A stretch of DNA of 64,000 bases from Thermoleophilia bacterium (GTDB taxonomy: Bacteria; Actinomycetota; Thermoleophilia; UBA2241): NCBI GenBank assembly GCA_035686425.1, contig DASRZL010000126.1:1712-65711 (forward strand), given 5' to 3'. Made by a program: the position numbers and the translations under genes. Numbering within the stretch: position 1 is the stretch's first letter; every line of letters begins with the position of its first letter. Shown piece by piece: positions 19,228 through 63,542 of this stretch. The notes beneath the pieces are model-generated. The model was not told the DNA's origin. It saw only the letters and a program-made list of their open reading frames with translations, and made no database searches.

Positions 19228-19303
19228 GCGGATGTAGTGTAGTTGGTAACACGTCAGCTTCCCAAGCTGAAGATCGCGGGTTCGAGTCCCGTCATCCGCT
19301 CCA
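19228..19303 (+). tRNA. tRNA-Gly (anticodon CCC)
   Basis: Manual cloverleaf: acceptor GCGGATG/CATCCGC, D-stem GTGT/ACAC, anticodon stem TCAGC/GCTGA with loop TTCCCAA, T-arm GCGGG-TTCGAGT-CCCGT, encoded CCA. Confidence 0.85.
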
Positions 19304-29200: not shown

Positions 29201-29346
29201 GGCGGCATTCTATAGGAGGAACGCCGGGGCGCGAGGCGCTTATGGACGTCGGGCATCCTGCCGATGGGAGGCACACGCCCGGTATCCCGGCCGCACGATG
29301 GAGGGTATGGTCACCGGGCGAGGCGACGGCGAGGTAGAGTACGGCG

Positions 29347-30642: not shown

Positions 30643-30684
30643 CGGCGCAGTCGGACAGTCCTCCCAGCGCGTACCGCGCCAAAA

Positions 30685-30714
30685 TTGACCCGTTTCTGCG
30701 CAGGCTAGTACAAT
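30685..30714 (+). promoter_or_regulatory. Candidate promoter (TTGACC-N18-TACAAT) upstream of fhs
   Basis: Sequence read directly, about 90 nt upstream of the fhs start. Confidence 0.4.
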
Positions 30715-30805
30715 CGGTCACAAGGTGCCGGCGCGCTGCCCTCTCGGCGTGCGCCGGCTCTCATCAGCGAAACGCGCGGGATAGTGGAGACCAAAGGAGG
30801 ACGCG

Positions 30806-32515: not shown

Positions 32516-32665
32516 GAACCTGAAGGAGCGACCCCGGGGCGCCGGCCGCCATGCGGCGCCGGCGCCCCGCGGAGCCCTTCTGGGCTCCGCTTCGACCGGC
32601 GACTCGTCCGGCCTGCCGGTCGCTCCCCGTCCGCGGCGCCCCGCGCGCCGCGCTGGAGGTACACG

Positions 32666-33307
32666 GTGAGCGACGGTCCCACCATCTACGCATCCGAGCC
32701 CCTGCAGGTCTACCTCGACGACGCCGCCAGCAAGAAGCCGGCGCCGGGCGGCGGCAGCGTGTCGGCCTGTGTCGGCGCCCTCGGCGCCGCGCTCGTCGCC
32801 ATGGTCTGCAATCTCACCCAAGGACGTGAGAAGTTCGCCGACGTCGAGACCGAGATCGTCGCCCTGGTCGGCCAGGCCGACGACGCCCGCGCGCGCCTTG
32901 AGCAGCTCCTCCAGGACGACACCACGGCGTACAACGGCGTCATCGCCGCCTTCAAGATGCCCAAGGACACCGACGAGGAGAAGGCCGCCCGCAAGGCCGC
33001 GGTGCAGGCCGGCCTCGTCGTCGCCGCAGACGTCCCGCTCGAGATCTGCCGCGTGGCCGTGGACGTGTGTCGCCTCGCGAAGGTCGCCGCCGAGCTCGGC
33101 AACCCGCAGGCGGTCACCGACGCCGGCATCGGCGCCATCCTCGGAGAGGCGGCCGTGGTCGGCGCCGCGCTCAACGTGCGCATCAACCTCGGCTCCATCG
33201 AGGACTGCGACTACACCCTGGCCGCCGCGGCGGAGATCGACAAGATCGAGGCCGAGGCCGCGGCGCTCCGTGCCGAGGTCCTCGCCATCACGCTCTCCAA
33301 GCTCTGA
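32666..33307 (+). CDS. fchA: Methenyltetrahydrofolate cyclohydrolase (FchA / formiminotransferase-cyclodeaminase family)
   Basis: Cyclodeaminase/cyclohydrolase fold (GGGSVSA...NLT), about 213 aa. Confidence 0.7.
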   Translation: MSDGPTIYASEPLQVYLDDAASKKPAPGGGSVSACVGALGAALVAMVCNLTQGREKFADVETEIVALVGQADDARARLEQLLQDDTTAYNGVIAAFKMPKDTDEEKAARKAAVQAGLVVAADVPLEICRVAVDVCRLAKVAAELGNPQAVTDAGIGAILGEAAVVGAALNVRINLGSIEDCDYTLAAAAEIDKIEAEAAALRAEVLAITLSKL

Positions 33308-33340
33308 TCACCCCTGACGACCGTAAACGAGAGGGAAGCC

Positions 33341-34204
33341 ATGGCAGCTCAGATCATCGACGGCAAGGCGATCGCCGAGCAGGTCCGCGAGGAGATCAAG
33401 TCCGAGGTCGCGGAGCTCGCGACCTCCGGCGTCACGCCCGGCGTCGCGACGATCCTCGTCGGCGAGGACGGCGGCGCGCAGTTCTATCGCGGCCAGATCG
33501 AGAAGAACACCGGTACGGTGGGCTTCAACTACTTCAGTCACGTGCTCCCGGCCGCCGCGAGCGAGGCTGAGGTCCTCGATCTCATCGCCAAGCTCAACGC
33601 CGACCCGAGCGTACACGGCATTCTCGCGCTCATGCCGATGGACGCCGACATCGACCAGAACACCGTGTTCAACGCGATCGCTCCCGAGAAGGACCTCGAC
33701 TGCGTGAACCCGGCCAACATCGGCCACGTGCTGCTCGGCGACCAGCTGTTCGCGCCGGCCACGCCGAGCGCCTGCATCGAGATCCTCGACCGCGAGGGCA
33801 TCGAGCTGTGTCCCGGCGGCAAGGGTCTCAACGTGACTATCGTGAATCACTCCAACATCGTCGGGAAGCCGGTGGCGCTGCTCTGCCTCAACCGCAACGC
33901 CTCGGTCCACGTGGTCCACGTGTTCAGCAAGGACGTGCCCGCCGCCTGCCGTGAGGCCGACGTGCTCATCTGCGCCGCTCCGGTGCAGAACCTCATCAAG
34001 GCCGACATGGTCAAGCCGGGCGCCGTGGTCATCGACGTCACGACCATCCGCGTCGACGGCAAGCAGGTCGGCTCCCTCGAGTTCGAGGCTGTGTGCGAGG
34101 TCGCCGGCCGCGTCACACCGGTCCCCGGAGGCGTCGGCCCGGTCACCAACGTCATCCTGCTCAAGAACGCCCTCGCCGCCTGCAAGGCGCAGACGGCCGG
34201 CTGA
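33341..34204 (+). CDS. folD: Bifunctional methylenetetrahydrofolate dehydrogenase/methenyl-THF cyclohydrolase
   Basis: MAAQIIDGKAIA..., PGGVGPVT C-terminal motif. Confidence 0.9.
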   Translation: MAAQIIDGKAIAEQVREEIKSEVAELATSGVTPGVATILVGEDGGAQFYRGQIEKNTGTVGFNYFSHVLPAAASEAEVLDLIAKLNADPSVHGILALMPMDADIDQNTVFNAIAPEKDLDCVNPANIGHVLLGDQLFAPATPSACIEILDREGIELCPGGKGLNVTIVNHSNIVGKPVALLCLNRNASVHVVHVFSKDVPAACREADVLICAAPVQNLIKADMVKPGAVVIDVTTIRVDGKQVGSLEFEAVCEVAGRVTPVPGGVGPVTNVILLKNALAACKAQTAG

Positions 34205-34372
34205 TCGCGGGGCCGGCGGCGGGCGCGGCGGCCCTCCGGGCCGCGCTACCCGCCGCCGGCCAAGTATGCTTCACTGAATCCAGACTGAAGACGCAGATGG
34301 GAAGGAGGGCGGCCGGACTGGTGCGCCATGGCCGCCCGACGAACGCGGAAGTGCGAAGGTGGAGTTGATGTG

Positions 34373-34924
34373 ATGCCCAGCCCAGCAGTGCCCTCCAAGC
34401 CTGCCGCGACCGGGGGAGGAGCCCCCGGGGCGGACGTCGACCTCGAGCAGGTCCAGACGCTCGTCGCGGAGATCGACCCCCACGGCAACCTGATCGCGCT
34501 GCTGCAGCGCGCCCAGGCTGTCTTCGGCTATCTGCCGGAGCCGGTCGTCGACGAGATCGCCCGGCTGAGCGGCGTCCCGGCCTCGCGCATCTACGGCATC
34601 ATCACCTTCTACGCCCAATTCTCCACGGTCCCCAGCGGGCGGCACAAGATCTTCGTCTGTCACGGTACAGCCTGTCACGTGGCCGGCGCGACGCGCATCA
34701 CCGAGGCGCTCGAGCAGGAGCTCGAGGTCGGCGACGGCGAGACCACGGCCGACAGGGAGTTCACGCTCGGCTCGGTCGCCTGCATGGGCGCCTGCTCGCA
34801 GGCGCCCGTCATGCGCGTCGAAGAAGAGACCTACGGCAACCTCAGCGCCGACGAGACGCGGAAGATCGCGCGCAAGCTCCTGGCCGAGGTGCTCGAGGAG
34901 CGCGGGGGCGATGGCGATGCCTGA
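34373..34924 (+). CDS. NuoE/HoxE-like 2Fe-2S thioredoxin-like subunit of a NAD(P)H-dependent diaphorase
   Basis: CHGTAC...C...C 2Fe-2S motif (VCHGTACHVAG, ACMGACSQAP); overlaps the NuoF-like gene. Confidence 0.75.
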   Translation: MPSPAVPSKPAATGGGAPGADVDLEQVQTLVAEIDPHGNLIALLQRAQAVFGYLPEPVVDEIARLSGVPASRIYGIITFYAQFSTVPSGRHKIFVCHGTACHVAGATRITEALEQELEVGDGETTADREFTLGSVACMGACSQAPVMRVEEETYGNLSADETRKIARKLLAEVLEERGGDGDA

Positions 34925-36809
34925 GGTCACCCCAGCGCCCGCCGAGGGCGTCAAGGTCGGCGTCTCCACCGGCGCGGACGGCCGGCGGCGCGTCTCGGTG
35001 TGCGCCGGCACCGCCTGCGTCTTCGCCGGCTCCATGAAGATCCACGACGCCTTCGTCGCCGAGATCGCCGAGGCTGGGCTCCAGGACGAGGTCGAGGTCG
35101 GCATCATCGGCTGTCATGGCCTCTGCTCCCAGGGTCCGCTGGCGGTGGCCTCGGACGGAGACACGTATTACCCGCGCCTCAAGCTCAAGAACGTGAAGAC
35201 GATCGTCGAGGAGCACCTCGTCGGCGGCGCGGTCGTGGAGAAGCTCCTGTACACCGACCCCGCGACCGGGGAGCGTATCGCCTGCGCCCACGACATCCCC
35301 TTCTACAAGGCGCAGACGCGTGTCGCGCTGCGCAACGTCGGCGTCATCGACCCGGAGAGCCTGGACGAGTACCTGGCGCGCGGTGGCTACGAGGCCGCGC
35401 GCAAGGCGCTCACGACGATGGAGCCGGAGGAGATCGTCCAGATGGTGCTGGACTCCGGGCTGCGCGGCCGGGGCGGCGCCGGGTTCCCGACGGGCATGAA
35501 GTGGAAGTTCGCGGCCGCCTCGCCGGGTGAGGTCAAGTACATCATCTGCAACGGGGACGAGGGCGACCCCGGCGCGTTCATGGACGCCTCCATCATGGAC
35601 GGCGATCCGCACGCTGTGCTGGAGGGCATGCTGATCGGCAGCTACGCCATCGGCGCCCACGAGGGCTACATCTACGTGCGCGCCGAGTATCCGCTCGCCG
35701 TCAAGCGCCTGCGCCTCGCCATCGCCGCAGCTGAGGAGCGCGGACTGCTGGGCGACGACGCGCTCGGCAGCGGCTGGGACTTCAAGCTCAGGATCAAGGA
35801 GGGCGCCGGAGCCTTCGTCTGCGGCGAGGAGACGGCGCTCATCGCCTCCATCGAGGGCAAGCGCGGCATGCCGCGCACGCGGCCGCCGTTCCCTGCGGTC
35901 TCGGGCCTCTGGGGCAAGCCGACGAACATCAACAACGTCGAGACGTGGGCCAACGTGTCCTGGATCGTCGCCAGCGGGCCGGCCGCCTACGCCTGCCACG
36001 GGAGCGACGCGTGCAAGGGCACCAAGGCCTTCAGCCTCGCCGGCAAGATCGTCAACGGCGGCCTCGCCGAGGTGCCGATGGGCTCCACGCTACGGCACGT
36101 CATCTTCGACGTCGGCGGCGGCATCAAGGACGGCAAGCAGTTCAAGGCCGTGCAGCTGGGTGGCCCGTCCGGCGGGTGCGTGCCGGCGAGCCTCCTCGAC
36201 ACGCCGGTCGACTACGAGAGCCTGGCCGCGACCGGCGCCATCATGGGCTCCGGCGGCATGGTGGTCGCCGACGACACCACGTGCATGGTCGATCTCGCGA
36301 GGTACTTCCTGCAGTTCACCCAGAACGAGAGCTGCGGCAAGTGCGTCCCCTGCCGCCTCGGCACCAAACGCATGCTCGAGATCCTCGAGCGCATCTGCGC
36401 CGGTGAGGGGGAGGAGGGCGACGTCGAGCGCCTCGAGAAGCTGGCCGTCACCATCAAGAAGACCAGCCTCTGCGGCCTCGGCCAGACGGCGCCCAACCCA
36501 GTGCTCACGACCATCCGCTACTTCCGCGACGAGTATCGGGCCCACATCGACGACCGCCGCTGCCCCGCGCTCTCGTGCGAATCGCTCATCGCCTACTCCA
36601 TCGATCCGGAGGCCTGCACCGGCTGCACGTTGTGCGCCAAGAAGTGCCCGGTCGAGGCCGCGACCGGCGAGAAGAAGCAGGTCCACACCATCGACCAGGC
36701 GCTCTGCATCCGCTGCGACGCCTGCCGCGTCGCCTGCAAGTTCGACGCGGTCAAGGTCGTGAGCGGGCCGGAAGAGATCGCCGCGGCGGTGCGGGCGCAG
36801 AGCGCCTGA
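34911..36809 (+). CDS. NuoF/HoxF-like flavoprotein (FMN, NAD(H)-binding, SLBB, 4Fe-4S) with N-terminal 2Fe-2S domain and C-terminal 2x[4Fe-4S] ferredoxin domain
   Basis: GRGGAGFPTG FMN motif, CGKCVPCR N3 cluster motif, C-terminal CTGCTLCAKKCP and CIRCDACRVAC. Confidence 0.85.
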   Translation: MAMPEVTPAPAEGVKVGVSTGADGRRRVSVCAGTACVFAGSMKIHDAFVAEIAEAGLQDEVEVGIIGCHGLCSQGPLAVASDGDTYYPRLKLKNVKTIVEEHLVGGAVVEKLLYTDPATGERIACAHDIPFYKAQTRVALRNVGVIDPESLDEYLARGGYEAARKALTTMEPEEIVQMVLDSGLRGRGGAGFPTGMKWKFAAASPGEVKYIICNGDEGDPGAFMDASIMDGDPHAVLEGMLIGSYAIGAHEGYIYVRAEYPLAVKRLRLAIAAAEERGLLGDDALGSGWDFKLRIKEGAGAFVCGEETALIASIEGKRGMPRTRPPFPAVSGLWGKPTNINNVETWANVSWIVASGPAAYACHGSDACKGTKAFSLAGKIVNGGLAEVPMGSTLRHVIFDVGGGIKDGKQFKAVQLGGPSGGCVPASLLDTPVDYESLAATGAIMGSGGMVVADDTTCMVDLARYFLQFTQNESCGKCVPCRLGTKRMLEILERICAGEGEEGDVERLEKLAVTIKKTSLCGLGQTAPNPVLTTIRYFRDEYRAHIDDRRCPALSCESLIAYSIDPEACTGCTLCAKKCPVEAATGEKKQVHTIDQALCIRCDACRVACKFDAVKVVSGPEEIAAAVRAQSA

Positions 36810-36872: not shown

Positions 36873-37056
36873 CTTTACTGCGCGGACCCCTTGCCTTCCG
36901 GCATTCCTTGCGCATATCTTTCGCTCGGTGATCAATCTGCGTCACGATCGATACCGCGGACCGAGGGGGTGGACCACACAGCGACAGTCGTGAGAACCAG
37001 TAGTAAGCGGATTGTCGCCGGGGCACGGCCGGGAGTCCGCCAACAAGGGGGGTAGT

Positions 37057-38682
37057 GTGGCAGAAGAACTCGCTTTCGCACGAAAGGCCAGCGGCCTGGT
37101 CCGCGGCCTCTCCATGACCGACGCCATCGCCGTCGGCATGATGAACCAGGGCATCACGCCCAGCATCTGGACGATGATCACCTGGGGCCTCGGCACCTAC
37201 CTGACCGGTAACCTGCTCTGGGCCAGCATCATCTCGCTCGTGCTCGTCGGCTTCGGCTTCCCGCTCGTCTGGGGCGTGCTCTCCGGGAGCATGCCGCGCT
37301 CGGGCGGTGAGTACATCTACAACTCGCGCATCATCCACCCGATCGTCGGCATCGCCGAGAGCTTCGGCAACGCCTTCGTGATGATCTTCTGGGTCTACAT
37401 CCTGGCGCCGTGGATCGCCGACCCCGGGCTCGTGATCTTCGCCGAGTACCAGGGCTGGACCTGGCTCTACGACTCGGCCACCGGAGCCTTCTTCGGCGGC
37501 CTCTCTTACGACTGGGGCGTGTTCGTCGTCGCCACCGTCTCCAACATCATCGCCTTCTTCACGGTCGTCTTCGGCATGAAGATCTTCGCCACCGTGCAGA
37601 AGACGATCATGGGCTTCGCCCTCGGCGGCGCCGCCGTGGTCACCGGGGCGATCATGTTCAGCAGCAAGGACGGCTTCGCCGAGAAGTGGGACGCGATCGC
37701 CGCCCAGTACGACTCGCTCGCCTACTCCGAGGTCGTGCCCGCGGTGTCGGCCGCCATCGGCGAGGCGGTGCCGACGAGCTCGACCTTCTACGGCACCCTC
37801 GGCGTCATGGTCGCCGGCTCGTGGCTGTTCGCCTACGCCTACTTCTGCGTCTTCGTCGCCGGCGAGGTCAAGCGCCCCGACAAGACGCTGATCACGGCCA
37901 ACTTCATCGCCATCCTGATCCCCGCCTGCTTCATGATCTGGACGGCGCTGGCGATGTACCGGACGATGCCCTTCGACTTCATCTCGGCGACCGCCTGGAT
38001 CGACAACAACGGCGGCATCGAGGGCTACAACCTGCCCTACCTGCCGAGTTACATGAGCCTCGCCTACATCGCCCACTCGAACTGGTTCATCGCCCTGGCG
38101 GCGAGCGGTTCCTACATCCTCTTCACCTTCTGGTATCTCTCGCTCAGCTACCTCGCCTTCCCGCGCATCATCTTCGCCTGGGGCATGGACCGCATGGGTC
38201 CCAAGTGGTTCACCTCGATCAACCCGCGGTGGGCGAGCCCGGTGAAGAACTACATCCTCTGCTTCGTCCTCTGCCAGGGTGCGATCGCGCTCTACACCTT
38301 CTGGCTGGGCAGCTACATGCAGGGCCTCACCGTGACCGGCATGGAGATCGTCTCGGTCTGGGGCGTGACCACCATCGCCGCGCTCATCTTCCCCTACGTG
38401 AAGCGCGCCAAGGGCATCTGGGAGTCCTCGCCCTACCGCACCTGGAAGTTCCTCGGCGTGCCGCTCGTCTCCTGGGGCGCCCTGGCTTCTCTGGTCTACC
38501 TGGGCATCCTCTTCTACTTCCTCATCTTCACCGAGGAGATGAAGGACTCCAACGGCCAGTCGTGGATCCTCTACGGCATCGTCTGGATCATCGGTATCCT
38601 CTGGTACTTCTTCTGGGCGGCGCGCAGCAAGAGCGTCGGCGTCGACGTCGGTATGACCTACGGGGAGCTGCCGCCGGAGTGA
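37057..38682 (+). CDS. APC superfamily amino acid/polyamine transporter
   Basis: About 540 aa, 12+ TM helices; GTG start chosen by homology with paralog start MAEELAFARKASGLVRGLSM. Confidence 0.7.
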   Translation: MAEELAFARKASGLVRGLSMTDAIAVGMMNQGITPSIWTMITWGLGTYLTGNLLWASIISLVLVGFGFPLVWGVLSGSMPRSGGEYIYNSRIIHPIVGIAESFGNAFVMIFWVYILAPWIADPGLVIFAEYQGWTWLYDSATGAFFGGLSYDWGVFVVATVSNIIAFFTVVFGMKIFATVQKTIMGFALGGAAVVTGAIMFSSKDGFAEKWDAIAAQYDSLAYSEVVPAVSAAIGEAVPTSSTFYGTLGVMVAGSWLFAYAYFCVFVAGEVKRPDKTLITANFIAILIPACFMIWTALAMYRTMPFDFISATAWIDNNGGIEGYNLPYLPSYMSLAYIAHSNWFIALAASGSYILFTFWYLSLSYLAFPRIIFAWGMDRMGPKWFTSINPRWASPVKNYILCFVLCQGAIALYTFWLGSYMQGLTVTGMEIVSVWGVTTIAALIFPYVKRAKGIWESSPYRTWKFLGVPLVSWGALASLVYLGILFYFLIFTEEMKDSNGQSWILYGIVWIIGILWYFFWAARSKSVGVDVGMTYGELPPE

Positions 38683-42267: not shown

Positions 42268-42328
42268 GCGGCGCGTAGACTCCATCTTTCGAGACGACGC
42301 CGAACCCGGAAGGGGGCGATAGGTAGAT

Positions 42329-43135
42329 ATGGGACAGTTCATCCTGCCGAAGGACATTCCACTCGACCGCTATCCCAAGCCCGAGGTCTTCCTCGAGGAG
42401 GGCAAACGGATCACGGAAGCAGCGCAGAAGCAGGGCATCATCATGCGCGTCATGGGCCCGCTTGCGCTGCACTACTACTTCCCGGACCAGGTCGACCTGT
42501 ACGCCAAGCTCGAGCGTCTGGGCGACCGCTACTTCACCGACATCGACTACGCCGTCTACGGCAAGGGCCGCAAGGGCATGGCCAAGCTGATGGAGTCGCT
42601 CGGCTACGAGAACGATCTCCAGACCATGGCCATGACCGGGCAGACCCGCCAGATCTACTTCGGCGGCAAGGTCCCCATGATCGATATCTTCTTCGACAAG
42701 CTCGACTACTGCCACGAGATCGATTACGCGGGGCGCCTCGAGCTCGATCCCTGGAGTGTCTCGCTCGCCGACATCCTGCTGCAGAAGCTGCAGATCTGGG
42801 AGATCAACGACAAGGACCTCAAGGACATCGAGTACCTGTTCACCGTCGCCGACTTCGGCGAGGACGACACCAGGAAGGTCAACGTCGGCTACATCTCCAG
42901 GCGTTTCGCCGACGACTGGGGCTTCTGGTACACCGCGACCACCAACCTCGACCGCGTCAAGGACCACGTCGACGGCGTGGACGCCCTGAGCCCCGACCAG
43001 AAGGCCAAGATCAAGCAGGTGGCCGACGACGTCAGGGCGCGGATCGACCAGGAGCCCAAGACGCGCAAGTGGGAGAAGCGCGCCAAGAAGGGCACCAAGA
43101 AGATCTGGTACAACACCGGTTTCTCCGACTGGTGA
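42329..43135 (+). CDS. Hypothetical protein
   Basis: 268-aa ORF with AGGTAG RBS-like spacer and good coding statistics; no family recognised. Confidence 0.5.
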   Translation: MGQFILPKDIPLDRYPKPEVFLEEGKRITEAAQKQGIIMRVMGPLALHYYFPDQVDLYAKLERLGDRYFTDIDYAVYGKGRKGMAKLMESLGYENDLQTMAMTGQTRQIYFGGKVPMIDIFFDKLDYCHEIDYAGRLELDPWSVSLADILLQKLQIWEINDKDLKDIEYLFTVADFGEDDTRKVNVGYISRRFADDWGFWYTATTNLDRVKDHVDGVDALSPDQKAKIKQVADDVRARIDQEPKTRKWEKRAKKGTKKIWYNTGFSDW

Positions 43136-51655: not shown

Positions 51656-52915
51656 GTGACCATGACCAGCGATCTCTCCAGCTTCGTCATCGCCAGGGCC
51701 AGGCCGGCCGAGCCGGCGGTCCGCATCGACGACACCACGCTCCGCGACGGGGAGCAGACCGCCGGTGTCGTGTTCAGTAATCACGAGAAGATCCGCATCG
51801 CCAAGCTCCTCGACGAGGTCGGCGTCCATCAGATCGAGGTCGGCATCCCGGCCATGGGCGGCGACGAGAAGGCGACGATCAGGGAGATCGTCGACCTGGG
51901 CCTCGACACGTCGATCCTCGCCTGGAATCGCGCCGTCGTTGACGACGTGCGACACTCTGTCGACTGCGGCGTCGACGCCGTGGCGATCAGCATGTCCGCC
52001 AGCGACATCCACATCGAGCACAAGCTGCAGAAGAGCCGCCAGTGGGTGCTCGACCAGATCCGTGAGTGCGTCGCCTTCGCCAAGGACCAGAACCTGTACG
52101 TCTCCGTGAATGCCGAGGACGCCTCGCGCTCCGACCTCGAGTTCCTGCTGCGCTTCTGCCGGGCGGCCAAGGAGGAGGGCGCCGACCGCCTGCGCTTCTG
52201 CGACACTCTGGGCATCCTCGACCCCTTCGACACGTACAACGTGATCACGTTCCTCAAGAAGGAGGGCGGGCTCGACATCGAGATGCACACGCACGACGAT
52301 TTCGGCATGGCGACCGCCAACGCCTTGGCCGGCATCAAGGCCGGCGCCAACTACGTGAACACCACCGTCAACGGCCTCGGCGAGCGAGCAGGGAACGCCG
52401 CCCTCGAGGAGGTCGTGATGGCGCTCAAGCACCTCGGCAAGGTCGACGTCGGCCTGCAAACGAGCCGCTTCCGCGAGCTCAGCGAGTACGTCGCCGCCGC
52501 CTCCGCGCGGACCATCCCGGCGTGGAAGAGCATCGTGGGCACCAACGTGTTCGCCCACGAGAGCGGCATCCACGCCGACGGCGTCATCAAGAACCCGCTC
52601 AACTACGAGGCCTTCGCGCCCGAGGACGTGGGCCTCGAGCGCCAGATCGTCGTCGGCAAGCACTCCGGCTCGCGCACGATCTACCGCAAGTTCCAGGAGT
52701 TCGGCCTGGAGCTCACGCAGGCCGATTGCCAGGGCGTGCTCGCGCTGGTCCGCAAGACGGCGGTCGAGCTCAAGCGGGCCCTGTTCGACAAGGAGCTCAT
52801 GTACATCTACCAGGACTACCTGGGGCGTCTCGGCGACGCAGTGCCCGTGGGGAAGGACAGAGACGCGGCCGGACCCGATGCTCCCGCCGCCTCTGAATCC
52901 GGAGCCGCGACGTGA
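51656..52915 (+). CDS. Homocitrate synthase / (R)-citramalate synthase (short-form LeuA/NifV family)
   Basis: DTTLRDGEQ, HxHDDFG motifs; lacks the LeuA C-terminal regulatory domain. Confidence 0.75.
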   Translation: MTMTSDLSSFVIARARPAEPAVRIDDTTLRDGEQTAGVVFSNHEKIRIAKLLDEVGVHQIEVGIPAMGGDEKATIREIVDLGLDTSILAWNRAVVDDVRHSVDCGVDAVAISMSASDIHIEHKLQKSRQWVLDQIRECVAFAKDQNLYVSVNAEDASRSDLEFLLRFCRAAKEEGADRLRFCDTLGILDPFDTYNVITFLKKEGGLDIEMHTHDDFGMATANALAGIKAGANYVNTTVNGLGERAGNAALEEVVMALKHLGKVDVGLQTSRFRELSEYVAAASARTIPAWKSIVGTNVFAHESGIHADGVIKNPLNYEAFAPEDVGLERQIVVGKHSGSRTIYRKFQEFGLELTQADCQGVLALVRKTAVELKRALFDKELMYIYQDYLGRLGDAVPVGKDRDAAGPDAPAASESGAAT

Positions 52916-54219
52916 ACAGCATCCGCAGGCACGCTATCGAGCGGGGCGCCGAAGGGGCACCGCTCCGCCCGGCGACGCTTGCCGAGCAGCTGCTCGCCGC
53001 GCACGCCGGGCTCGACTCCGTCGTCCCCGGTCAGATCGTCGTCTGCGACGTCGACGTCGCCATCGCCCAGGACGGCACCGGGCCGCTCGCCATCGAGCAG
53101 ATCGCGGAGCTCGGCATCACCCGTGTGAAGGCGCCGACCTGCGTCTTCTTCATCGACCACGCGGCGCCGGCGCCGCGCAGCGAGCTGGCCAATGCGCAGA
53201 AGACGATCAGAGCCTTCTGCGCATCCTCCGGCGCGACGCTGAGCGACGTCGAAATGGGCGTGTGCCACCAGCGCGTGGCCGAGAGCTTCGCGAAGCCAGG
53301 CGACCTCGTCATCGGCGCCGACTCGCACACCTGCATGGCCGGCGCGCTCGGCGCCTTCGCCACCGGCATGGGCAGCACGGACGTCGCCGTGGGCATGGTC
53401 AGCGGCAAGACGTGGCTGCGCGTGCCGGAGACGTACCGCATCGAGGTCTCGGGCGTGTTCGCGCCAGGCATCGAGGCCAAGGACCTGATGCTCACCCTGA
53501 TCGGCGAGCTCGGCGCCGACGGCGCCACGTACAAGGCGCTGGAGTTCGGCGGACCCGGCATCGACGCGATGCCCATGCACAGCCGCTTCACGCTCAGCAA
53601 CATGGCCGTTGAGGCCGGCGCCAAGTGCGGCCTCATGCCCAGCGACGACGTGACCCGCGCCTATCTCGCCGGGCTGGGTCGCGAGGAGGGCTGGCGAGCG
53701 CTCTTCCCGGACGCCGGCGCGGCGTACGAACGAGTCGTCGAGTTCGACGCCGGCGCGGTCGTGCCCACGGTCGCGCGGCCGCACACCGTGGACAACACTG
53801 CCGCCGCCGCGGAACTCGCGGGCACGAAGGTCGACCAGGTGCTCATCGGCACGTGCACCAACGGCCGCCTCGACGACCTGCGCTCGGCTGCGCGCATCCT
53901 GCGCGGCCGCCGCCGCGCGCCGGGCACGCGCCTCATCGTCACGCCGGCCTCGCAGGCCACCGCCCGCGCCGCGGCCGCCGAAGGCCTGCTGGAGGTCTTC
54001 TGGGAGGCCGGCGCCGTGGTCACCAACCCCGGCTGCGGCGCCTGCGTGGGTATCCACGAGGGCATCCTCGCCGACGGCGAGGTGTGTCTGAGCACGGCCA
54101 ACCGCAACTTCCACGGCCGCATGGGCAATCCGGAGGCCTTCATCTACCTGGGCTCGCCGGCCACCGCGGCCGCGACGGCCGTGGCCGGCGAGATCACCGA
54201 TCCACGCGAGCTACTCTAG
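52912..54219 (+). CDS. 3-isopropylmalate/homoaconitate dehydratase large subunit (archaeal-type LeuC/HacA)
   Basis: Aconitase-family Cys ligands ([15 protein letters not shown]), about 435 aa. Confidence 0.8.
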
Positions 54220-54232
54220 AAGGGAGGGCGTT

Positions 54233-54754
54233 ATGGCCAAGCAGTACAGCGGACCCCCGCAGATGGTCATCGACCCCAGCAAGCGCTACATCGCCACGAT
54301 CGCCACCGACGGCGGCGACATCGTCATCGAGCTGTTCGCCGACAAGGCCCCGCGCACCGTCAACAACTTCGTCTTTCTCGCCCAGGACGGTTACTACGAC
54401 GGCGTGACGTTCCACCGCGTCATCAAGGGCTTCATGGCGCAGGGCGGGGACCCCACCGGTAGCGGCAGCGGCGGCCCCGGCTACCGCTTCGAGGACGAGT
54501 TCCACCCGTCGCTGAAGCACGACGAGCCCGGCATGCTCTCGATGGCCAACGCCGGGCCCGGAACCAACGGTTCGCAGTTCTTCATCACCTACACGGCGAC
54601 GCCACACCTCGATGGCAAGCACACCGTCTTCGGGCGCGTCATCGAAGGCATGGACGTCGTCGACGCGATCCCCGAGCGCGACCCGATGCGGGCCAGGGAG
54701 CCCGGAGTCGCCATGAACTCGGTGGCGATCCGGGAGGAGGAGTGGGTGACGTGA
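54233..54754 (+). CDS. Peptidyl-prolyl cis-trans isomerase, cyclophilin type
   Basis: [21 protein letters not shown] motifs. Confidence 0.85.
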
Positions 54755-55272
54755 GCGAGGAGCTCCTGCTCGGCCGGGCCTGGCTGTTCGGTGACGACAT
54801 CAGCACCGACCACATCGCGCCCGGCCGGCTGTTTCACCTGCGCACGGACCTTCCCGAGCTCGCCAAGCACGTGCTCGAGGACGCGCGGTCGGAGTTCGCC
54901 GGCGAGCTGCGCCCGGGCGACTTCGTCGTGGGCGGCCGCAACTTCGGTCTCGGCTCGAGCCGCGAGCACGCGCCGCGCATCATCAAGATGGCCGGCGTCG
55001 GCGCCGTGCTGGCGCAGAGCTTCGCGCGCATCTTCTTCCGCAACGCGATCAACGTCGGGTTGCCGGTGCTGCAGTGCGACACGTCGGGCATCGGCGAGCA
55101 CGACGACCTCGAGGTCGACCTGGCCGCCGGCGAGGTCCGCGACCTGACTTCCGACGCCGTGATCCCGTTCGTGCCGCTGCCGCCGGTGATGGTGACCATC
55201 CTGAACGACGGCGGCCTGGTGCCCCACGTCAAGAAGCACGGCGGCTTCGCGCTGCCGGGAGGACAAGCATGA
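54742..55272 (+). CDS. 3-isopropylmalate/homoaconitate dehydratase small subunit (LeuD-like)
   Basis: GDDISTDHI...[14 protein letters not shown] aconitase swivel-domain motifs. Confidence 0.8.
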
Positions 55273-56273
55273 CTCATACCGTGACGCTCATCCCCGGCGA
55301 CGGAACCGGCCCGGAACTGGCCGCCGCGCTCGAGATCGTGATCGCCGCCACCGGCGTGCCCATCGTCTGGGAAGTCCACGACGCCGGCCTCGACGTGATG
55401 GAGGAGCACGGCACGCCGCTGCCGCAGCACGTCATCGACTCGATCCGCCGGACGAAGGTGGCGATCAAAGGGCCCATCACGACGCCCGTGGGCAAGGGCT
55501 TCCGCAGCGTCAACGTGGCGCTGCGCAAGGAGCTCGAGCTGTACGCCTGCCTGCGTCCCGCCAAGACGATGAAGGGCGTGCGCACCCGCTTCGACGACAT
55601 CGACCTCGTCGTCGTGCGCGAGAACACCGAGGACCTCTACGCCGGCATCGAGCACATGGTCGGCGAGGACGCCGCGGAGAGCATCAAGATCATCACCCGA
55701 AAGGGTAGCGAGCGGATCGCGCGCTTCGCCTTCGAGTACGCGGTCCGGCACGGCCGCCGCAAGGTCACCGCCGTGCACAAGGCCAACATCATGAAGTGCA
55801 CCGACGGGCTCTTCCTCGCGGTCGCCCGGGAGGTCGCCGAGGCCTACCCGCAGATCGAGTTCGAGGACCGCATCGTCGACAACATGTGCATGCAGCTGGT
55901 GCAGAAGCCCGAGCTCTACGACGTGCTCGTGCTCCCGAACCTCTACGGCGACATCGTCAGCGACCTGTGCGCCGGGCTGATCGGAGGGCTCGGCGTCGCG
56001 CCCGGCGCCAACATCGGCGCGGACGCGGCCGTGTTCGAGCCCGTGCACGGCAGTGCGCCCAAGTACGCCGGTCAGGACAAGGTGAACCCCACGGCGCTGC
56101 TCCGCTCCGGAGTGCTGCTGCTCGAGCACCTCGGAGAGGACGCGGCTGCGAGACGGATGGAAGACGCCATCGCCGCCGTCATCTCCGAGGGCAAGGACGT
56201 GACCTACGACCTCGGCGGCTCTGCCGGCACGTCCGGCATGGCCGCCGCCATCGCTGACCGGATCGCCGGCTGA
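55269..56273 (+). CDS. Homoisocitrate/3-isopropylmalate dehydrogenase family (decarboxylating, NAD-dependent)
   Basis: [13 protein letters not shown]-terminus, NLYGDIVSD metal-site motif; ATG at 55269 after GGAGGACAAGC. Confidence 0.8.
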
Positions 56274-56866: not shown

Positions 56867-58657
56867 TTGGACTTCTACCAAGGCAAAGTACTCAGGATCG
56901 ACCTGAGTGCGAGCACCTCCGCCGTCGAGCCGCTCAACATGGAGTGGGCCGAGAAGTACATCGGCGGCAAGGGTCTGCTCCTGCGCTACATGTGGGAGGA
57001 TATACTGCCGGGTCTCGACCCCTGGGCTGCCGACAACCCCGTATACCTCGTGACCGGACCGTTCGCCGGCACCAACGTCAGCACCTCGTCGCGGCTCATC
57101 GTGGGCTGCAAGAGCCCGGTGACCGGCGTCCTCAACGACAGCTACGTGGGCGGTTCGTTCGCCCCGGAGATGAAGTTCGCAGGCTACGACATCATCATCA
57201 TCTCCGGCCGCGCTCCCGAACCGACGGTCGTCACGATCAAGGACGACGTGGTCGAGTTCCGGCCGGCGCAGCCCAAGTACTGGGGCATGAAGACCTCGGC
57301 GATCGAGCAGGCGCTGCGCGACGATTTCGACCCTGGCGCCAAGGTGCTTTCCATCGGCCCGGCCGGTGAGCAGAAGGTGCCGTGGGCCTGCGTCTCCACC
57401 GACCAGTATCACAAGGCCGGACGTGGCGGCCACGGCGCTCTGCTGGGTGACAAGAACCTCAAGGCCGTCGCCATCCGGGGCACGGGCTCTGTGAGCGTCG
57501 GTGACGCCAAGGAGTTCCTCGCCGACGTGTGGCGTATGCACGACGAGTACGTCCTCACCGACGACAACTACTGGGTCCACGAGGAGGGCACGCCGATCCT
57601 CGTCGACCTCGTCAACGGCGCCGGCGCGCTGCCGACCCGCAACTGGTCCGAGGGCGAGTTCGAGGGCGCCGGCAGCATCAATTCGGAGTCGTTCCAGAAG
57701 ATCCGTCTCAAGAAGCGCGCCTGCTACCAGTGCGCCATCGCGTGCCGCAACTTCCATGGGGTGGAGCAGGGCGGCGAGATGGTGCAGGGGGAGGGTCCCG
57801 AGTACGAGACCATCGCCCTGTGCGGCTCCAACTGCGGCATCGGCGACATCGCCGCCCTGGTGCGCTTCAACGAGCTCTGCGACGAGTGGGGGATGGACAC
57901 CATCTCGACCGGCTCCGTCCTCGGCCTCGCCATGGACCTCACCGAGAAGGGCATCAAGGACTTCGGCGTACGCTTCGGCGACGTCGACGGCTACCTCGGG
58001 GCGCCGGAGCTCATGGCGACCCGCACCGGTGTCGGCGAAGAGCTGGCTCTCGGCGCGAAGCATCTGGCCGAGAAATACGGCGTCTCGGAGCTGGCCATGG
58101 AGGTCAAGAACCTCGAGCTGCCGGGCTACGACCCGCGCGGCACCTTCGGCATGAGTCTCTCGTACTCGACCTCCGACCGGGGTGGCTGCCACATGCGCTC
58201 CTACCCCGTGGGCGACGAGATCATCACCGGCGACGAACCCGCCGACACGATGGAGGGCAAGGCGGCCTACAACATCAACGGCCAGAACTTCTCGTCGATG
58301 AAGTACCTCGGCATCTGGTGCGACTTCTGGGCCATCGATCTCGATCAGATGAGCCAGCTGCTCAAGCACCTCTGGAAGCGCGAGGTGACCGAAGAAGAGC
58401 TCGCCACCGCGGGCGAGCGTGTCTGGAACCTCGGCCGGCTTTTCAACCTTCGCGAGGGCATGACGGCGGCCGACGACTATCTGCCGGAGCTGCTCCTCAC
58501 CAAGCCCCACAAGAAGGGTCCGTCGGCCGGTCGCGTAATCGGCACGGAGGCCTTCGCTGAGAAGACGCAGGAGTACTACCGCCTCCGCGGCTGGGACGAG
58601 AACGGCGTCCCCACCGAAGACAAACTCGCCGAGCTCGGCGTCGACGTCCGCCTCTAG
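56867..58657 (+). CDS. Aldehyde:ferredoxin oxidoreductase (tungsten-containing AOR family)
   Basis: N-terminal GKVLRIDLS, 4Fe-4S ligands (C..C...C), pterin-binding motifs; TTG start after AGGAGGA; TAG stop. Confidence 0.85.
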   Translation: MDFYQGKVLRIDLSASTSAVEPLNMEWAEKYIGGKGLLLRYMWEDILPGLDPWAADNPVYLVTGPFAGTNVSTSSRLIVGCKSPVTGVLNDSYVGGSFAPEMKFAGYDIIIISGRAPEPTVVTIKDDVVEFRPAQPKYWGMKTSAIEQALRDDFDPGAKVLSIGPAGEQKVPWACVSTDQYHKAGRGGHGALLGDKNLKAVAIRGTGSVSVGDAKEFLADVWRMHDEYVLTDDNYWVHEEGTPILVDLVNGAGALPTRNWSEGEFEGAGSINSESFQKIRLKKRACYQCAIACRNFHGVEQGGEMVQGEGPEYETIALCGSNCGIGDIAALVRFNELCDEWGMDTISTGSVLGLAMDLTEKGIKDFGVRFGDVDGYLGAPELMATRTGVGEELALGAKHLAEKYGVSELAMEVKNLELPGYDPRGTFGMSLSYSTSDRGGCHMRSYPVGDEIITGDEPADTMEGKAAYNINGQNFSSMKYLGIWCDFWAIDLDQMSQLLKHLWKREVTEEELATAGERVWNLGRLFNLREGMTAADDYLPELLLTKPHKKGPSAGRVIGTEAFAEKTQEYYRLRGWDENGVPTEDKLAELGVDVRL

Positions 58658-58669
58658 GAAGGGAATCCG

Positions 58670-60194: not shown

Positions 60195-60306
60195 CCGCGC
60201 CGGTGCGCTTGCCAGCCCCTCTCGGCCCTCGGTACACTCCCGGGGCGCGGCGCCCCGGCGCTGTTCGGTACTCTTCAGCGGCCACAGCGAACGGGAGGAA
60301 CGTCCT

Positions 60307-61377
60307 GTGAACCACCCCGGCGTCTCGATCGGCGGTCTCTGCTCGCGCATCCTCCAGGGCGCCGTCCCGGACGAGGGCGACCTCGAGTCGCTGCTGCGCG
60401 CAGGCGACGAGGCGCCGCTCGTGTTCGCTGCCGCGCGCGAGATGCGCGCGCGGCAGTCCGGCGACGCGGTCTTCCTGTATGGCTTCGTGTACTTCTCCAC
60501 GTACTGCCGCAACGAGTGCGCCTTCTGCTTCTACCGCGCGGACAACGAAGAGAGCCCGCGCTACCGCAAGACCACGGACGAGGTGGTCGCGATCTGCCTC
60601 GACCTCGCCGAGTCCGGCGTCGTCCTGCTCGACCTCACCATGGGCGAGGACCCCGTCATCCACGACGATCCCGGCCACGCCGCGCTGGTGGAGCTCGTCG
60701 CCGCCGTAGCGGACGGCGCCGGGCTGCCGGTCATGGTGTCGCCGGGTGTCCTCCCGGAGGCCGCGCTGGGCCAGATCAGCGCGGCCGGGGCGGACTGGTA
60801 CGCGCTGTATCAGGAGACGCACACGCGGGAGCTGTACGACCGCCTGCGCGTGGGGCAGCCGTTCGAGGAGCGCGGCGCTGCAAGAGACGCGGCCCGGCGG
60901 GCCGGTCTGCTCGTCGAAGACGGCCTCCTCACCGGCATCGGCGACTCGGCCGCCGACCGCGCCCGCTCGATCGTGGCGATGCGGGAGGCCGGCTGGGAGC
61001 AGGTGCGCGTCATGACCTTCGTCCCTCAGGCGGGCACGCCCCTCGAGGACGTGCGCCCGCTGGGCGACGCGGACGAGTTGCTCACCATCGCCGCCATGCG
61101 GCTGGCGATGCCCGACCGCTTCATCCCGGCTTCGCTGGACGTGGACGGTATCGCCGGCCTGGAGCGGCGGCTCGAGGCGGGGGCGAACGTGGTCACGTCG
61201 ATCGTGCCACCGACGGTCGGCCTCGCCGGCGTCTCGCAGGCGGAGCTCGACATCGACGAGGGCTACCGGACGGTACACGGCGTCCTGCCGCACCTCGCTC
61301 GTCTGGGGCTTCGTCCCGCCGGCGTCGACGAGTACCGCGAGCGCATGCGCACGGTGCGCGCCGCCGCGGCGCGGTGA
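60307..61377 (+). CDS. pylB: 3-methylornithine synthase PylB (radical SAM lysine mutase)
   Basis: CRNECAFC radical-SAM motif embedded in FVYFSTYCRNECAFCFY, plus LDLTMGEDP, ALYQETH..ELY..LRVGQ, VRVMTFVPQAGTPLE, IPASLD..GI.G...LEAGANVVTSI blocks that track archaeal PylB almost residue by residue; GTG start after GGAGG. Confidence 0.8.
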   Translation: MNHPGVSIGGLCSRILQGAVPDEGDLESLLRAGDEAPLVFAAAREMRARQSGDAVFLYGFVYFSTYCRNECAFCFYRADNEESPRYRKTTDEVVAICLDLAESGVVLLDLTMGEDPVIHDDPGHAALVELVAAVADGAGLPVMVSPGVLPEAALGQISAAGADWYALYQETHTRELYDRLRVGQPFEERGAARDAARRAGLLVEDGLLTGIGDSAADRARSIVAMREAGWEQVRVMTFVPQAGTPLEDVRPLGDADELLTIAAMRLAMPDRFIPASLDVDGIAGLERRLEAGANVVTSIVPPTVGLAGVSQAELDIDEGYRTVHGVLPHLARLGLRPAGVDEYRERMRTVRAAAAR

Positions 61378-61381
61378 GCGC

Positions 61382-62626
61382 ATGCGCCTCCTGATCGTCG
61401 GCGGCAAGCTGCAGGGCACCGAGGCCGCGTACCTCGCCGCCAAGGCCGGGTGGGAGACTGTGCTCATCGACCGGCGCGAGGCTCCTCCCGCGGCCGGGCT
61501 GACCGATGCGCACGTGATCGCCGACGTCACTGCGGATGAGGCGCGCACGCGGAGCCTCGTAGCCTCGTGTGACGCCGTGCTGCCCGCCTGTGAGGACGAG
61601 CCCACCCTGGCGTGGCTCGCCGAGCGCGTCCCGGCGTGGGGCGTGCCGTTCCTGTTCGACCTCGACGCCTATCGCGTGACGGCGTCGAAGCTGGCGTCGC
61701 GGAGGCTCTTCGCCGAGCTGGATGTGCCCCGCCCGGGTGATTGGCCGGGCTGCGGCCTCCCCGCAGTGATCAAGCCGAGCACGGCGAGCGGGAGCGAGGG
61801 CGTCGTCGTCGCCCACGACAAAGCCGAGCTGGAGGCGGCCCGGAGCGAGCTGGTGGCCGCCGGGCACGACGTGGTCACCGAAGAGTACGTGGCCGGCCCC
61901 TCACTCTCACTCGAGGTGCTGGCGTGGGGCGGAAGGGCCGTACCGCTCCAGGTGACTGGCCTCGAGTTCGACGCGACCTATGACTGCAAGCGTGTGGTGG
62001 CGCCGGTAGGGGAGGCCGCCGGCGGAGCGCCCGCGTCCGCCGGCCCCGGCGGCGCCTGCGACTGGGATGCCGCCGTCGCCGGCGGCGTCCTCGATGCCTT
62101 CGACGCGGCCAGCGTGCGCGTGGCGGAAGGCCTCGGCCTCAACGGCCTCATGGACGTGGAGGTGATGGTGAGCGGCACGGCGCCGAAGCTGCTCGAGATC
62201 GACGCGCGGCTCCCCAGCCAGACCCCGACGGCGGTCTACTGGTCGAGCGGGCTCAACGTCGTCGAGTTGCTGGCCGAGACCGTGCGCACAGGGGCGCCGC
62301 CGGCCGTCGATCGCGCGGCGCGGCGCGCGTGCCTCTATCAGCACGTGCGCGCCTCCGGGGGTCTGCTCGAAGTCCTCGGCGAGCATGTGATGGGGAGTGC
62401 CGGTCCCCTGCGCCTCGTGCCGGGGTTCTTCGGCGCGGACGAGGCGCTCACTGACTACGCCTCCGGGCGCCCGGAGTGGGCGGCGACGTTGATCGTCGCG
62501 GCCCCGACGGTCGATGAGGCGCGCCGCCGCGCCGGGGACACCGTGGAAGCACTGGCTCGATACGAGAACCTTCAAGCTATACTTGAAGGAGAGACATCAC
62601 CTGCCGACGAAGGAGGTCCCCGATGA
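61382..62626 (+). CDS. pylC: 3-methylornithine--L-lysine ligase PylC (ATP-grasp)
   Basis: LLIVGGKLQGTEAAYLAAKAG N-terminus and EIDARLPSQTPTAVYWSSGLNVVELL block match PylC; ATP-grasp fold. Confidence 0.8.
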   Translation: MRLLIVGGKLQGTEAAYLAAKAGWETVLIDRREAPPAAGLTDAHVIADVTADEARTRSLVASCDAVLPACEDEPTLAWLAERVPAWGVPFLFDLDAYRVTASKLASRRLFAELDVPRPGDWPGCGLPAVIKPSTASGSEGVVVAHDKAELEAARSELVAAGHDVVTEEYVAGPSLSLEVLAWGGRAVPLQVTGLEFDATYDCKRVVAPVGEAAGGAPASAGPGGACDWDAAVAGGVLDAFDAASVRVAEGLGLNGLMDVEVMVSGTAPKLLEIDARLPSQTPTAVYWSSGLNVVELLAETVRTGAPPAVDRAARRACLYQHVRASGGLLEVLGEHVMGSAGPLRLVPGFFGADEALTDYASGRPEWAATLIVAAPTVDEARRRAGDTVEALARYENLQAILEGETSPADEGGPR

Positions 62627-63429
62627 CACGACTGACCGAGACCGACGTCACTACGCTGACGCGGGACCTGGACGCGTTCGAGGACCGTCTGAGGGACGTC
62701 ACGGGGTTCGGCCTTCGGGGGATCGCGCTGCGTACCGCCACCGACGAGGCGCGGTGCGTCCTGCTTCGCGGCGCGCGTATCGCCGCCGTCCCGATGTCAT
62801 CGGGGCAAGGATTCATCCCCGGGTTCTCCGAGTGCGTCGTGGCGATCCTCTCGCACCTCGGCTGTGACGCCTGGGCGACGACACAGCCGGACGTGCGCGG
62901 CATCCAGGCGGGCGTCGCCGCCGGCGCCGACGTCCTCTTCCTTGCCGACGACCACCGCTTTATCGCCCTGAACGTGGCCGGGGGCTGCACCGTGGACGAC
63001 GACCCCGCGACCGCGGATGGGTACGTCACGGCGCTGCAAGCCGCCGCGGGTGGATTGCCGGAGCGCCGGGTCCTGCTCCTCGGCCTGGGTCCTGTCGGCC
63101 GGGCCGCCGCGCGACGACTCGTCAGCCGGGGCGCGACGGTGCTCGTCGTCGAGCCCGACAAGGAGCGCTTGGCGGCAGCGCTCGAGGTCGGGCTGAAGGT
63201 CGAGCCCGTCGAGCTGGCCACCGGACTGGAGAGCTGCGACCTGATCTTCGACGCGTCGCCGGCCGCCGGCATCATCGACGCCGCAGACATCAGGCCGGAG
63301 GCGATCGCCGCCGTCCCCGGCCTGCCCTCGGCCTTCACGCCGGCGGCGCAAGAGGCTCTCGGCGTGCGTCACATCCACGAGCCGCTGGCGATCGGCGTGG
63401 CTGTCATGGCGGTGCGCGCGCTGCTCTGA
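62623..63429 (+). CDS. pylD: Pyrrolysine synthase PylD (3-methylornithyl-N6-lysine dehydrogenase)
   Basis: LTETDV..L..DL...E..LRDVTG.GLRGI N-terminus, LADDHRFIALN, Rossmann LLLGLGPVGRAAARRL, C-terminal EPLAIGVA; ATGA overlap with pylC. Confidence 0.8.
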   Translation: MTRLTETDVTTLTRDLDAFEDRLRDVTGFGLRGIALRTATDEARCVLLRGARIAAVPMSSGQGFIPGFSECVVAILSHLGCDAWATTQPDVRGIQAGVAAGADVLFLADDHRFIALNVAGGCTVDDDPATADGYVTALQAAAGGLPERRVLLLGLGPVGRAAARRLVSRGATVLVVEPDKERLAAALEVGLKVEPVELATGLESCDLIFDASPAAGIIDAADIRPEAIAAVPGLPSAFTPAAQEALGVRHIHEPLAIGVAVMAVRALL

Positions 63430-63469
63430 CGGCCGCGCGCGGCCCGCACGGTGTACAATCGCAGGGCGT

Positions 63470-63542
63470 GGGGGGTCGATCGGAAGGATCAGCGTGGGCT
63501 CTAAACCCACGTAGGCGGGTGTGACTCCCGCACTCCCCGCCA
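63470..63542 (+). tRNA. pylT: tRNA-Pyl (amber suppressor, anticodon CUA), pylT
   Basis: Manual fold: acceptor GGGGGGU/ACUCCCC (one G-U), short D-arm GAUC-GGAAG-GAUC, 6-bp anticodon stem CGUGGG/CCCACG with loop CUCUAAA (anticodon CUA), 3-nt variable loop, T-arm GCGGG-UGUGACU-CCCGC, discriminator G, encoded CCA; near-identical architecture to bacterial (Desulfitobacterium-type) tRNA-Pyl. Confidence 0.8.

Follow-up and report, generated by a model that had tools for sequence, protein, structure and literature searches.

The window, the whole 64-kb stretch of DNA analysed here, carries near its end a run of genes for the synthesis and use of pyrrolysine. On the plus strand pylB (60307-61377) encodes the radical SAM enzyme methylornithine synthase, 356 aa from a GTG start at 60307, the gene call being that of a nearly identical contig (L001, described below). 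It is followed by pylC (61382-62626), the 3-methylornithine--L-lysine ligase of 414 aa, and pylD (62623-63429), the 3-methylornithyl-N6-L-lysine dehydrogenase of 268 aa. All three match NCBIfam equivalogs above the curated cut-offs: TIGR03910 with 434.6 bits for PylB (cut-off 348), TIGR03909 with 339.4 bits for PylC (cut-off 248) and TIGR03911 with 203.7 bits for PylD (cut-off 150). The gene for the pyrrolysine tRNA, pylT (63470-63542), begins 40 nt past the pylD stop on the same strand as pylB-pylC-pylD, and the window ends 458 nt beyond it.

The locus can be followed past this point in two other sequences. L001, a contig from a metagenome that shares 99.86% identity with the window, has after pylT a minus-strand Germane/Gmad2-domain gene, pylSn, a minus-strand radical SAM gene and the first part of a gene for a corrinoid protein. 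Its pylSn, 109 aa long and 1.1 kb downstream of pylT, matches TIGR03912 with 128.8 bits (cut-off 51). L010 (CAVOVA010000001.1), a 279-kb contig from a Thermoleophilia genome bin, shares 96.2% identity with the window across 9.4-11.6 kb, above the 95% customarily taken as the species boundary, and so comes from the same species. There the order is pylB-C-D-T, the Gmad2 gene (minus), pylSn (plus), the radical SAM gene (minus), a TIGR02370 corrinoid protein (plus), a SAM methyltransferase (plus) and pylSc (minus), the last matching TIGR02367 with 321 bits about 4.3 kb downstream of pylT. A tblastn search detected no pylSc in the window or in L001; because the L010 gene lies beyond the span of L001, pylSc can be placed past the end of that contig. 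With pylSn in L001 and pylSc in L010 the cassette is complete.

The best PDB matches of PylSc are 3dsq and 2zni (314 bits), structures of the Desulfitobacterium hafniense enzyme, and PylSn matches 5ud5, the N-terminal domain of pyrrolysine--tRNA ligase. Between pylSn and pylSc in L010 (10344-12922) lie the radical SAM gene (292 aa, opposite strand), the methyltransferase-cognate corrinoid protein of TIGR02370 and the SAM-dependent methyltransferase. A corrinoid protein of this methyltransferase-partner family stays in the cluster in 63 related loci. Standard annotation models name the neighbours of pylT correctly, and a standard tool finds pylT itself.

The tRNA gene is 73 nt long with the CCA encoded, and its assignment as tRNA-Pyl(CUA) draws on ARAGORN, a covariance model, the minimum free energy (MFE) fold and covariation. 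The acceptor stem pairs GGGGGGU (63470-63476) with ACUCCCC (63532-63538) and includes a G5.U wobble. A single base, C8 (63477), separates the acceptor and D stems. The D arm (63478-63490) consists of a 4-bp stem, GAUC with GAUC, and the 5-nt loop GGAAG, and is followed by a connector A (63491). The anticodon stem has 7 bp (63492-63498 with 63506-63512), more than the 5 bp of a standard tRNA, and is made up of a G.U pair and the six Watson-Crick pairs of CGUGGG with CCCACG. It carries the loop CUCUAAA (63499-63505), in which CUA lies at 63501-63503 and both U33 and A37 are present. The unpaired variable loop is AG (63513-63514), within a 3-nt UAG region at 63512-63514. The T arm (63515-63531) has the stem GCGGG/CCCGC and the loop UGUGACU, with U54, G57 and A58 and no T-psi-C sequence. 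The discriminator G (63539) precedes the encoded CCA.

Much of this had been read from the letters in an earlier note on the same DNA: the CUCUAAA loop with its CUA anticodon, the very short D loop, the T loop without T-psi-C, and the acceptor stem with a G5-U68 wobble and a G73-CCA end are all in the sequence as described there. The published identity elements G73, G1:C72, G10:C25 and A11:U24 are all present, as are the conserved T-loop features U54/A58 and a purine at position 57 (PMC1851642). Position 8 is C, not G, and is invariant in the clade.

ARAGORN places a tRNA-Pyl (anticodon cta) at exactly 63470-63542 and finds just one further tRNA in the window, a tRNA-Gly(CCC) at 19228-19303. 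The tRNA-Pyl covariance search proposed in the earlier note was carried out with R1, a model built from four pyrrolysine tRNAs, all from outside this lineage: pylT of Methanosarcina, whose sequence was confirmed in PMC9792948 and PMC6566996, and the tRNAs of L089 (a deltaproteobacterial genome), L090 (a Firmicutes metagenome-assembled genome) and L093 (another bacterial contig), each of the last three found by ARAGORN beside pyl genes. In the 64-kb window the one strong match of R1 is 63470-63542, at full length with 83.8 bits (E = 6.8e-21), and the runner-up is the tRNA-Gly with 21 bits. Relative to the model, the aligned gene has just one base inserted, G 63492, located after the D arm and ahead of the anticodon stem. 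The general tRNA family of Rfam, RF00005, does not match pylT: neither a search of the whole window at the gathering threshold nor one of 400 nt around the gene at E <= 10 detects it, which fits a non-canonical tRNA. No Rfam family matches at the locus, and the three hits below threshold, to Atu_Ti3, a tymovirus tRNA-like element and mir-343, are due to chance. Folded by itself, the sequence takes the form of a cloverleaf with an MFE of -36.7 kcal/mol (z = -2.5).

The 66 pylT genes collected from related loci reduce to 21 distinct sequences, all of 73 nt and without insertions or deletions, in which the CUCUAAA loop and the AG of the variable loop are invariant and the G5.U wobble is retained in 20. 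When they are placed on a 7/4/7/5 cloverleaf, 99.0% of the cells are standard pairs and nine pairs are changed on both sides. None of 500 column shuffles reached the observed pairing or the two-sided changes, and sliding the partners by 1-3 columns left only 38-58% paired. RNAalifold, run on the homologues, arrived independently at the same 7/4/7/5 fold. The cloverleaf of pylT is thus under purifying selection across more than 60 species. At one pair of the anticodon stem, columns 26/40 (63495/63509), four distinct homologues have a C.A mismatch where the rest have U-A (13) or C-G (4); it looks like an intermediate between these two.

The one part of the structure that can be drawn in two ways is the junction below the anticodon stem. 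Canonical bacterial tRNA-Pyl has been described with a 6-bp anticodon stem and a 3-nt variable loop (Herring et al. 2007, PMC1851642), and the earlier note read the gene in the same way, adding a connector of two nucleotides. Two bases, A22 and G23, do precede the canonical 6-bp stem, or one if 23:43 (63492/63512) is counted as a pair. In the 21 distinct homologues this pair is GC in eight, GU in eight, AU in four and CG in one, and it is never unpaired; the MFE fold and the RNAalifold consensus both contain it. Since 23:43 covaries without exception, the anticodon stem is given as 7 bp, the connector as A22 only and the variable loop as 2 nt. The reading with six pairs, the unpaired connector A and G, a 3-nt unpaired UAG and no contact between G23 and U43 has in its favour the canonical description, the G.U wobble that the pair would merely be in the window, the treatment of G23 as an insertion by R1, and the compact core of this tRNA family, which could use both bases in tertiary contacts. 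Against four standard pair types with no exception among 21 sequences, and two folds that include the pair, we regard it as unlikely. Of the earlier description, then, the six Watson-Crick pairs, the extra nucleotide and the bases UAG are all real; the seventh pair takes G23 out of the connector, leaving 1 nt, and U43 out of the variable loop, leaving AG.

The 40 nt that separate pylD from the tRNA gene contain a hexamer resembling a -10 element, TACAAT (63454-63459, plus strand), 16 nt before the mature 5' end. Sixty-four distinct upstream regions from DNA of roughly 70% G+C, with diverged flanks, were compared at this point. A TANNNT begins at -16 to -18 in 57 of the 64, within 14-18 nt in 61 and within 14-21 nt in 62. 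Because its position is kept while the flanks diverge, we infer a dedicated pylT promoter with a leader of probably a few nucleotides. A scan for two-hexamer sigma-70 sites found no full -35/-10 site for pylT. No intrinsic terminator was detected after the gene, and the 83 nt downstream fold no better than shuffled sequence (z = +0.8).

The protein genes have a candidate promoter of their own. A sigma-70-like site on the plus strand, TTGCCA (60209-60214), an 18-nt spacer and TACACT (60233-60238), precedes pylBCD, followed by a conserved 5' leader of about 65 nt (within 60209-60306) that ends in a GGGAGG ribosome-binding site. Candidate promoter and leader are conserved in about 18 related loci. 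A structured leader was also considered and rejected; the helix by which, according to RNAalifold, the ribosome-binding site would be sequestered is backed by hardly any covariation. Other species lack the leader, their pylB immediately adjoining a nitroreductase-family gene.

Just upstream of the pyl genes (51656-56273) are a homocitrate-synthase-like gene (HCS_D2 domain), the large and small subunits of an aconitase-family enzyme and an isocitrate/isopropylmalate-type dehydrogenase. They look like the putative first steps of alpha-aminoadipate lysine synthesis, and the same synteny is repeated in L005 and L006. One-carbon and redox genes cluster at 29338-36809 and encode a LarC-like nickel-insertion protein, formate--tetrahydrofolate ligase, FolD, a protein with a cyclodeaminase domain and a NuoF-like flavoprotein that has Fe-S domains; the cluster could act on methyl groups bound to tetrahydrofolate. 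Two open reading frames, 36994-38682 (562 aa) and 42323-43135 (270 aa), are clearly coding, with a third-position G+C of 0.93-0.95, and have no Pfam or NCBIfam match.

Pyrrolysine decoding is usually linked to methanogens, some Firmicutes and some Deltaproteobacteria. In a survey from 2022, 81 bacterial genomes carried the synthetase, of which only two were Actinobacteria (PMC9630628). A scan with a PylSn alignment, one genome per species, detected relatives in 326 species, and the best 80 of the 326 are nearly all metagenome-assembled and labelled uncultured Thermoleophilia, Actinomycetota or Actinomycetes. PylD homologues at 68% identity or more number in the hundreds in metagenomes. For 60 of the fetched loci pylSc was also found, 56 of them in the Thermoleophilia/Actinomycetota group. 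Our literature search found nothing that connects pyrrolysine with Thermoleophilia; the two words co-occur only in a soil survey, once each. With dozens of soil Thermoleophilia species carrying the whole cassette, the trait is wider in terrestrial bacteria than the literature reflects.

Among the best 80 of the 326, 63 loci have, according to ARAGORN, a tRNA-Pyl of 73 nt after pylD. R1 adds three more pylT genes, two cut by contig ends and one complete (L016:8576-8648), a 73-nt gene that scores 84.3 bits with R1 and was missed by ARAGORN. Standard finders are for this reason not fully reliable for tRNA-Pyl of the 73-nt type. The earlier note's remark that such genes are often missed thus goes too far for the window, where ARAGORN finds pylT, but has an instance in L016.

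The extra nucleotide is common to all Thermoleophilia loci examined and to two others, L088, labelled Dehalococcoidales, and L092, an unassigned contig. In both of these mtbB adjoins the pyl genes, and the mtbB of L092 is visibly broken by an in-frame TAG. Two loci whose PylSn is 87-97% identical to that of the window organism were deposited as bins of 'Deltaproteobacteria' (L012) and 'candidate division Zixibacteria' (L049); these names are probably binning or labelling errors.

What the tRNA might read was sought in the genes around it. No homologue of mttB or mtbB occurs in the 64-kb window, and none lies within 10 kb of pylSn in the Thermoleophilia loci, for which about 20 kb each was fetched from about 80 related species. 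Over the same range, the window and up to 10 kb from pylSn in those about 80 species, no gene has an in-frame TAG. Non-actinobacterial comparators, in contrast, have mttB or mtbB beside the pyl cassette. One candidate in the window was read-through of the TAG at 58655, which ends an aldehyde:ferredoxin oxidoreductase gene and would fuse it to an Fe-S gene that follows 12 nt on in the same frame (58655-58669). This is the sole TAG of the window with coding signal on both sides. The candidate was rejected: related loci end the gene with TAG, TGA or TAA and have a spacer of 12-33 nt that is often out of frame and contains the ribosome-binding site, so that 58655 is an ordinary stop. Other in-frame TAG candidates in related loci were likewise all ordinary stops with the neighbouring gene in the same frame.

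Stop codon usage was also examined. Long open reading frames of the related loci end in TGA in 666 cases (70%), in TAG in 221 (23%) and in TAA in 59 (6%). In the window, 48 of 51 long reading frames with high third-position G+C end in TGA, three in TAG and none in TAA, a small and non-independent sample. Depletion of TAG as a signature of amber suppression is thus unsupported for the clade; with 23% of long reading frames ending in TAG there is no sign that the codon was purged. As ordinary TAG stops are frequent, suppression has to be weak, regulated or tolerated.

Taken together, pylT is most probably the pyrrolysine amber-suppressor tRNA gene of an uncultured member of the Thermoleophilia, standing in a complete bacterial cassette with a split synthetase; from sequence and gene context we put the probability of this reading at about 0.93. 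The earlier note's identification of a bacterial-type amber-suppressor tRNA-Pyl is borne out by ARAGORN, R1, the surrounding pyl genes, compensatory conservation and the identity elements. Of the features that define tRNA-Pyl and can be judged in silico, the gene departs from the known members in the one-base insertion alone. In the working model, pylT would be transcribed from its own -10 element in the gap after pylD, and the short leader would then be trimmed from a transcript that carries the 3' CCA from the outset. Pyrrolysine would be made from two lysines by PylB, PylC and PylD. PylSn would grip the T loop and the small variable region of the tRNA while PylSc charged the molecule without reading the anticodon, and the charged tRNA-Pyl would read in-frame UAG codons as pyrrolysine.

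Two other accounts of the gene have to be weighed against this one. The cassette might have been acquired horizontally and now be a decaying or silent remnant, its tRNA no longer decoding, as one could suppose from the lack of a UAG-containing target gene near the cluster in any related locus, from the frequency of TAG as a stop in those loci, and from a gene order that is scrambled relative to the pylT-Sc-B-C-D-Sn of L089. Against a remnant stand the persistence of the tRNA across more than 60 species, its stems 99% paired and changed in a compensatory way, and the conservation of its promoter hexamer; the five protein genes are moreover intact and above the curated cut-offs, and the corrinoid protein is retained inside the cluster in 63 loci. 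We consider a silent cassette very improbable. The scarcely credible case is that of a conventional tRNA, or of a generic amber suppressor inserting a standard amino acid, whose likeness to tRNA-Pyl is fortuitous or comes from reading the loop in the wrong register. The locus folds as a cloverleaf, and no assignment to a conventional isoacceptor scores: RF00005 has no match at E <= 10, and R1 gives 83.8 bits to pylT against 21 to the real tRNA-Gly of the window. The invariance of CUCUAAA in 21 distinct homologues and the constant place of pylT beside pylD speak against this case too, for which the G+C-rich sequence and a single-sequence fold of only z = -2.5 could be cited.

A broader reading of the pyrrolysine tRNA is put forward tentatively, and we think it rather doubtful as a whole. 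The 73-nt form, with its extra base, 7-bp stem, 2-nt loop and C8, may be a natural class of tRNA-Pyl not singled out before, possibly co-evolved with the split PylSn/PylSc and possibly not cross-reacting with the pairs used in code expansion, and its hosts may then make up a large group of actinobacteria from soil, with pyrrolysine in some of their proteins. As no methylamine methyltransferase gene accompanies the cassette, those pyrrolysine proteins would, if this is true, be ones not yet identified. A natural tRNA-Pyl that differs by one nucleotide near the variable region is a candidate source of mutually orthogonal pairs for genetic code engineering.

Compared with known tRNAs, pylT shows an identity of 84% with the deltaproteobacterial tRNA-Pyl (L089), of 77-78% with the other two from bacteria and of 62% with that of Methanosarcina. 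A likeness of shape alone is found in the mitochondrial tRNA-Ser(UGA) of Bos taurus, which has a 6-bp anticodon stem, a 5-nt D loop, one base separating the acceptor stem from the D stem and a 3-nt variable loop (PMC1851642); it is a structural analogue only, with little sequence likeness, its own anticodon, its own identity and nothing that ties it to pyl genes. The Methanosarcina tRNA shares the GAUC/GAUC D stem, the 5-nt D loop, CUCUAAA, the NAG variable region and G73-CCA. It differs in being 72 nt long, with a 1-nt connector, a 6-bp stem and U8, and in being served by a fused PylSn-PylSc synthetase.

The tRNA-Pyl of L089 (CP070652.1) has the acceptor stem and the T-stem core in common with pylT, whereas it is 74 nt long, has a longer D arm and places a single G before a 6-bp stem, with UAG after it. 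Its cassette is also different: pylT precedes pylSc, and genes of the MttB family and for corrinoid proteins are adjacent. The canonical comparators have one base, a 6-bp stem and NAG, which matches the published description (PMC1851642).

Another close system is the bacterial tRNA-Pyl served by a split PylSn and PylSc, the D. hafniense type, compared here through its published description (PMC1851642). The two share the CUCUAAA loop with CUA, G1-G4 and G6 in G:C pairs, and the G5.U68 wobble that is also found in D. hafniense (PMC1851642). They further share the one base between acceptor and D stems, a D stem with G10 A11 U12 C13, G14 as the opening of a 5-nt D loop, an elongated anticodon stem, an NAG variable region, a T loop that lacks T-psi-C but has U54/A58 and purine 57, and G73. 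In both the synthetase is split into PylSn and PylSc, the catalytic subunit of the Thermoleophilia cassette being closest to 3dsq and 2zni. The differences are the one extra nucleotide, with its 7-bp stem and 2-nt unpaired variable loop, and C8 in place of G8, a moderate identity element in D. hafniense. The gene order, pylB-C-D-T...pylSn...pylSc with pylSc on the opposite strand, also departs from pylT-Sc-B-C-D-Sn, the order of the D. hafniense type and of L089, and the host, a member of the Thermoleophilia with about 70% G+C, is unlike the hosts of that type. The one-nucleotide departure is a lineage-specific trim of a known design and no different kind of molecule.
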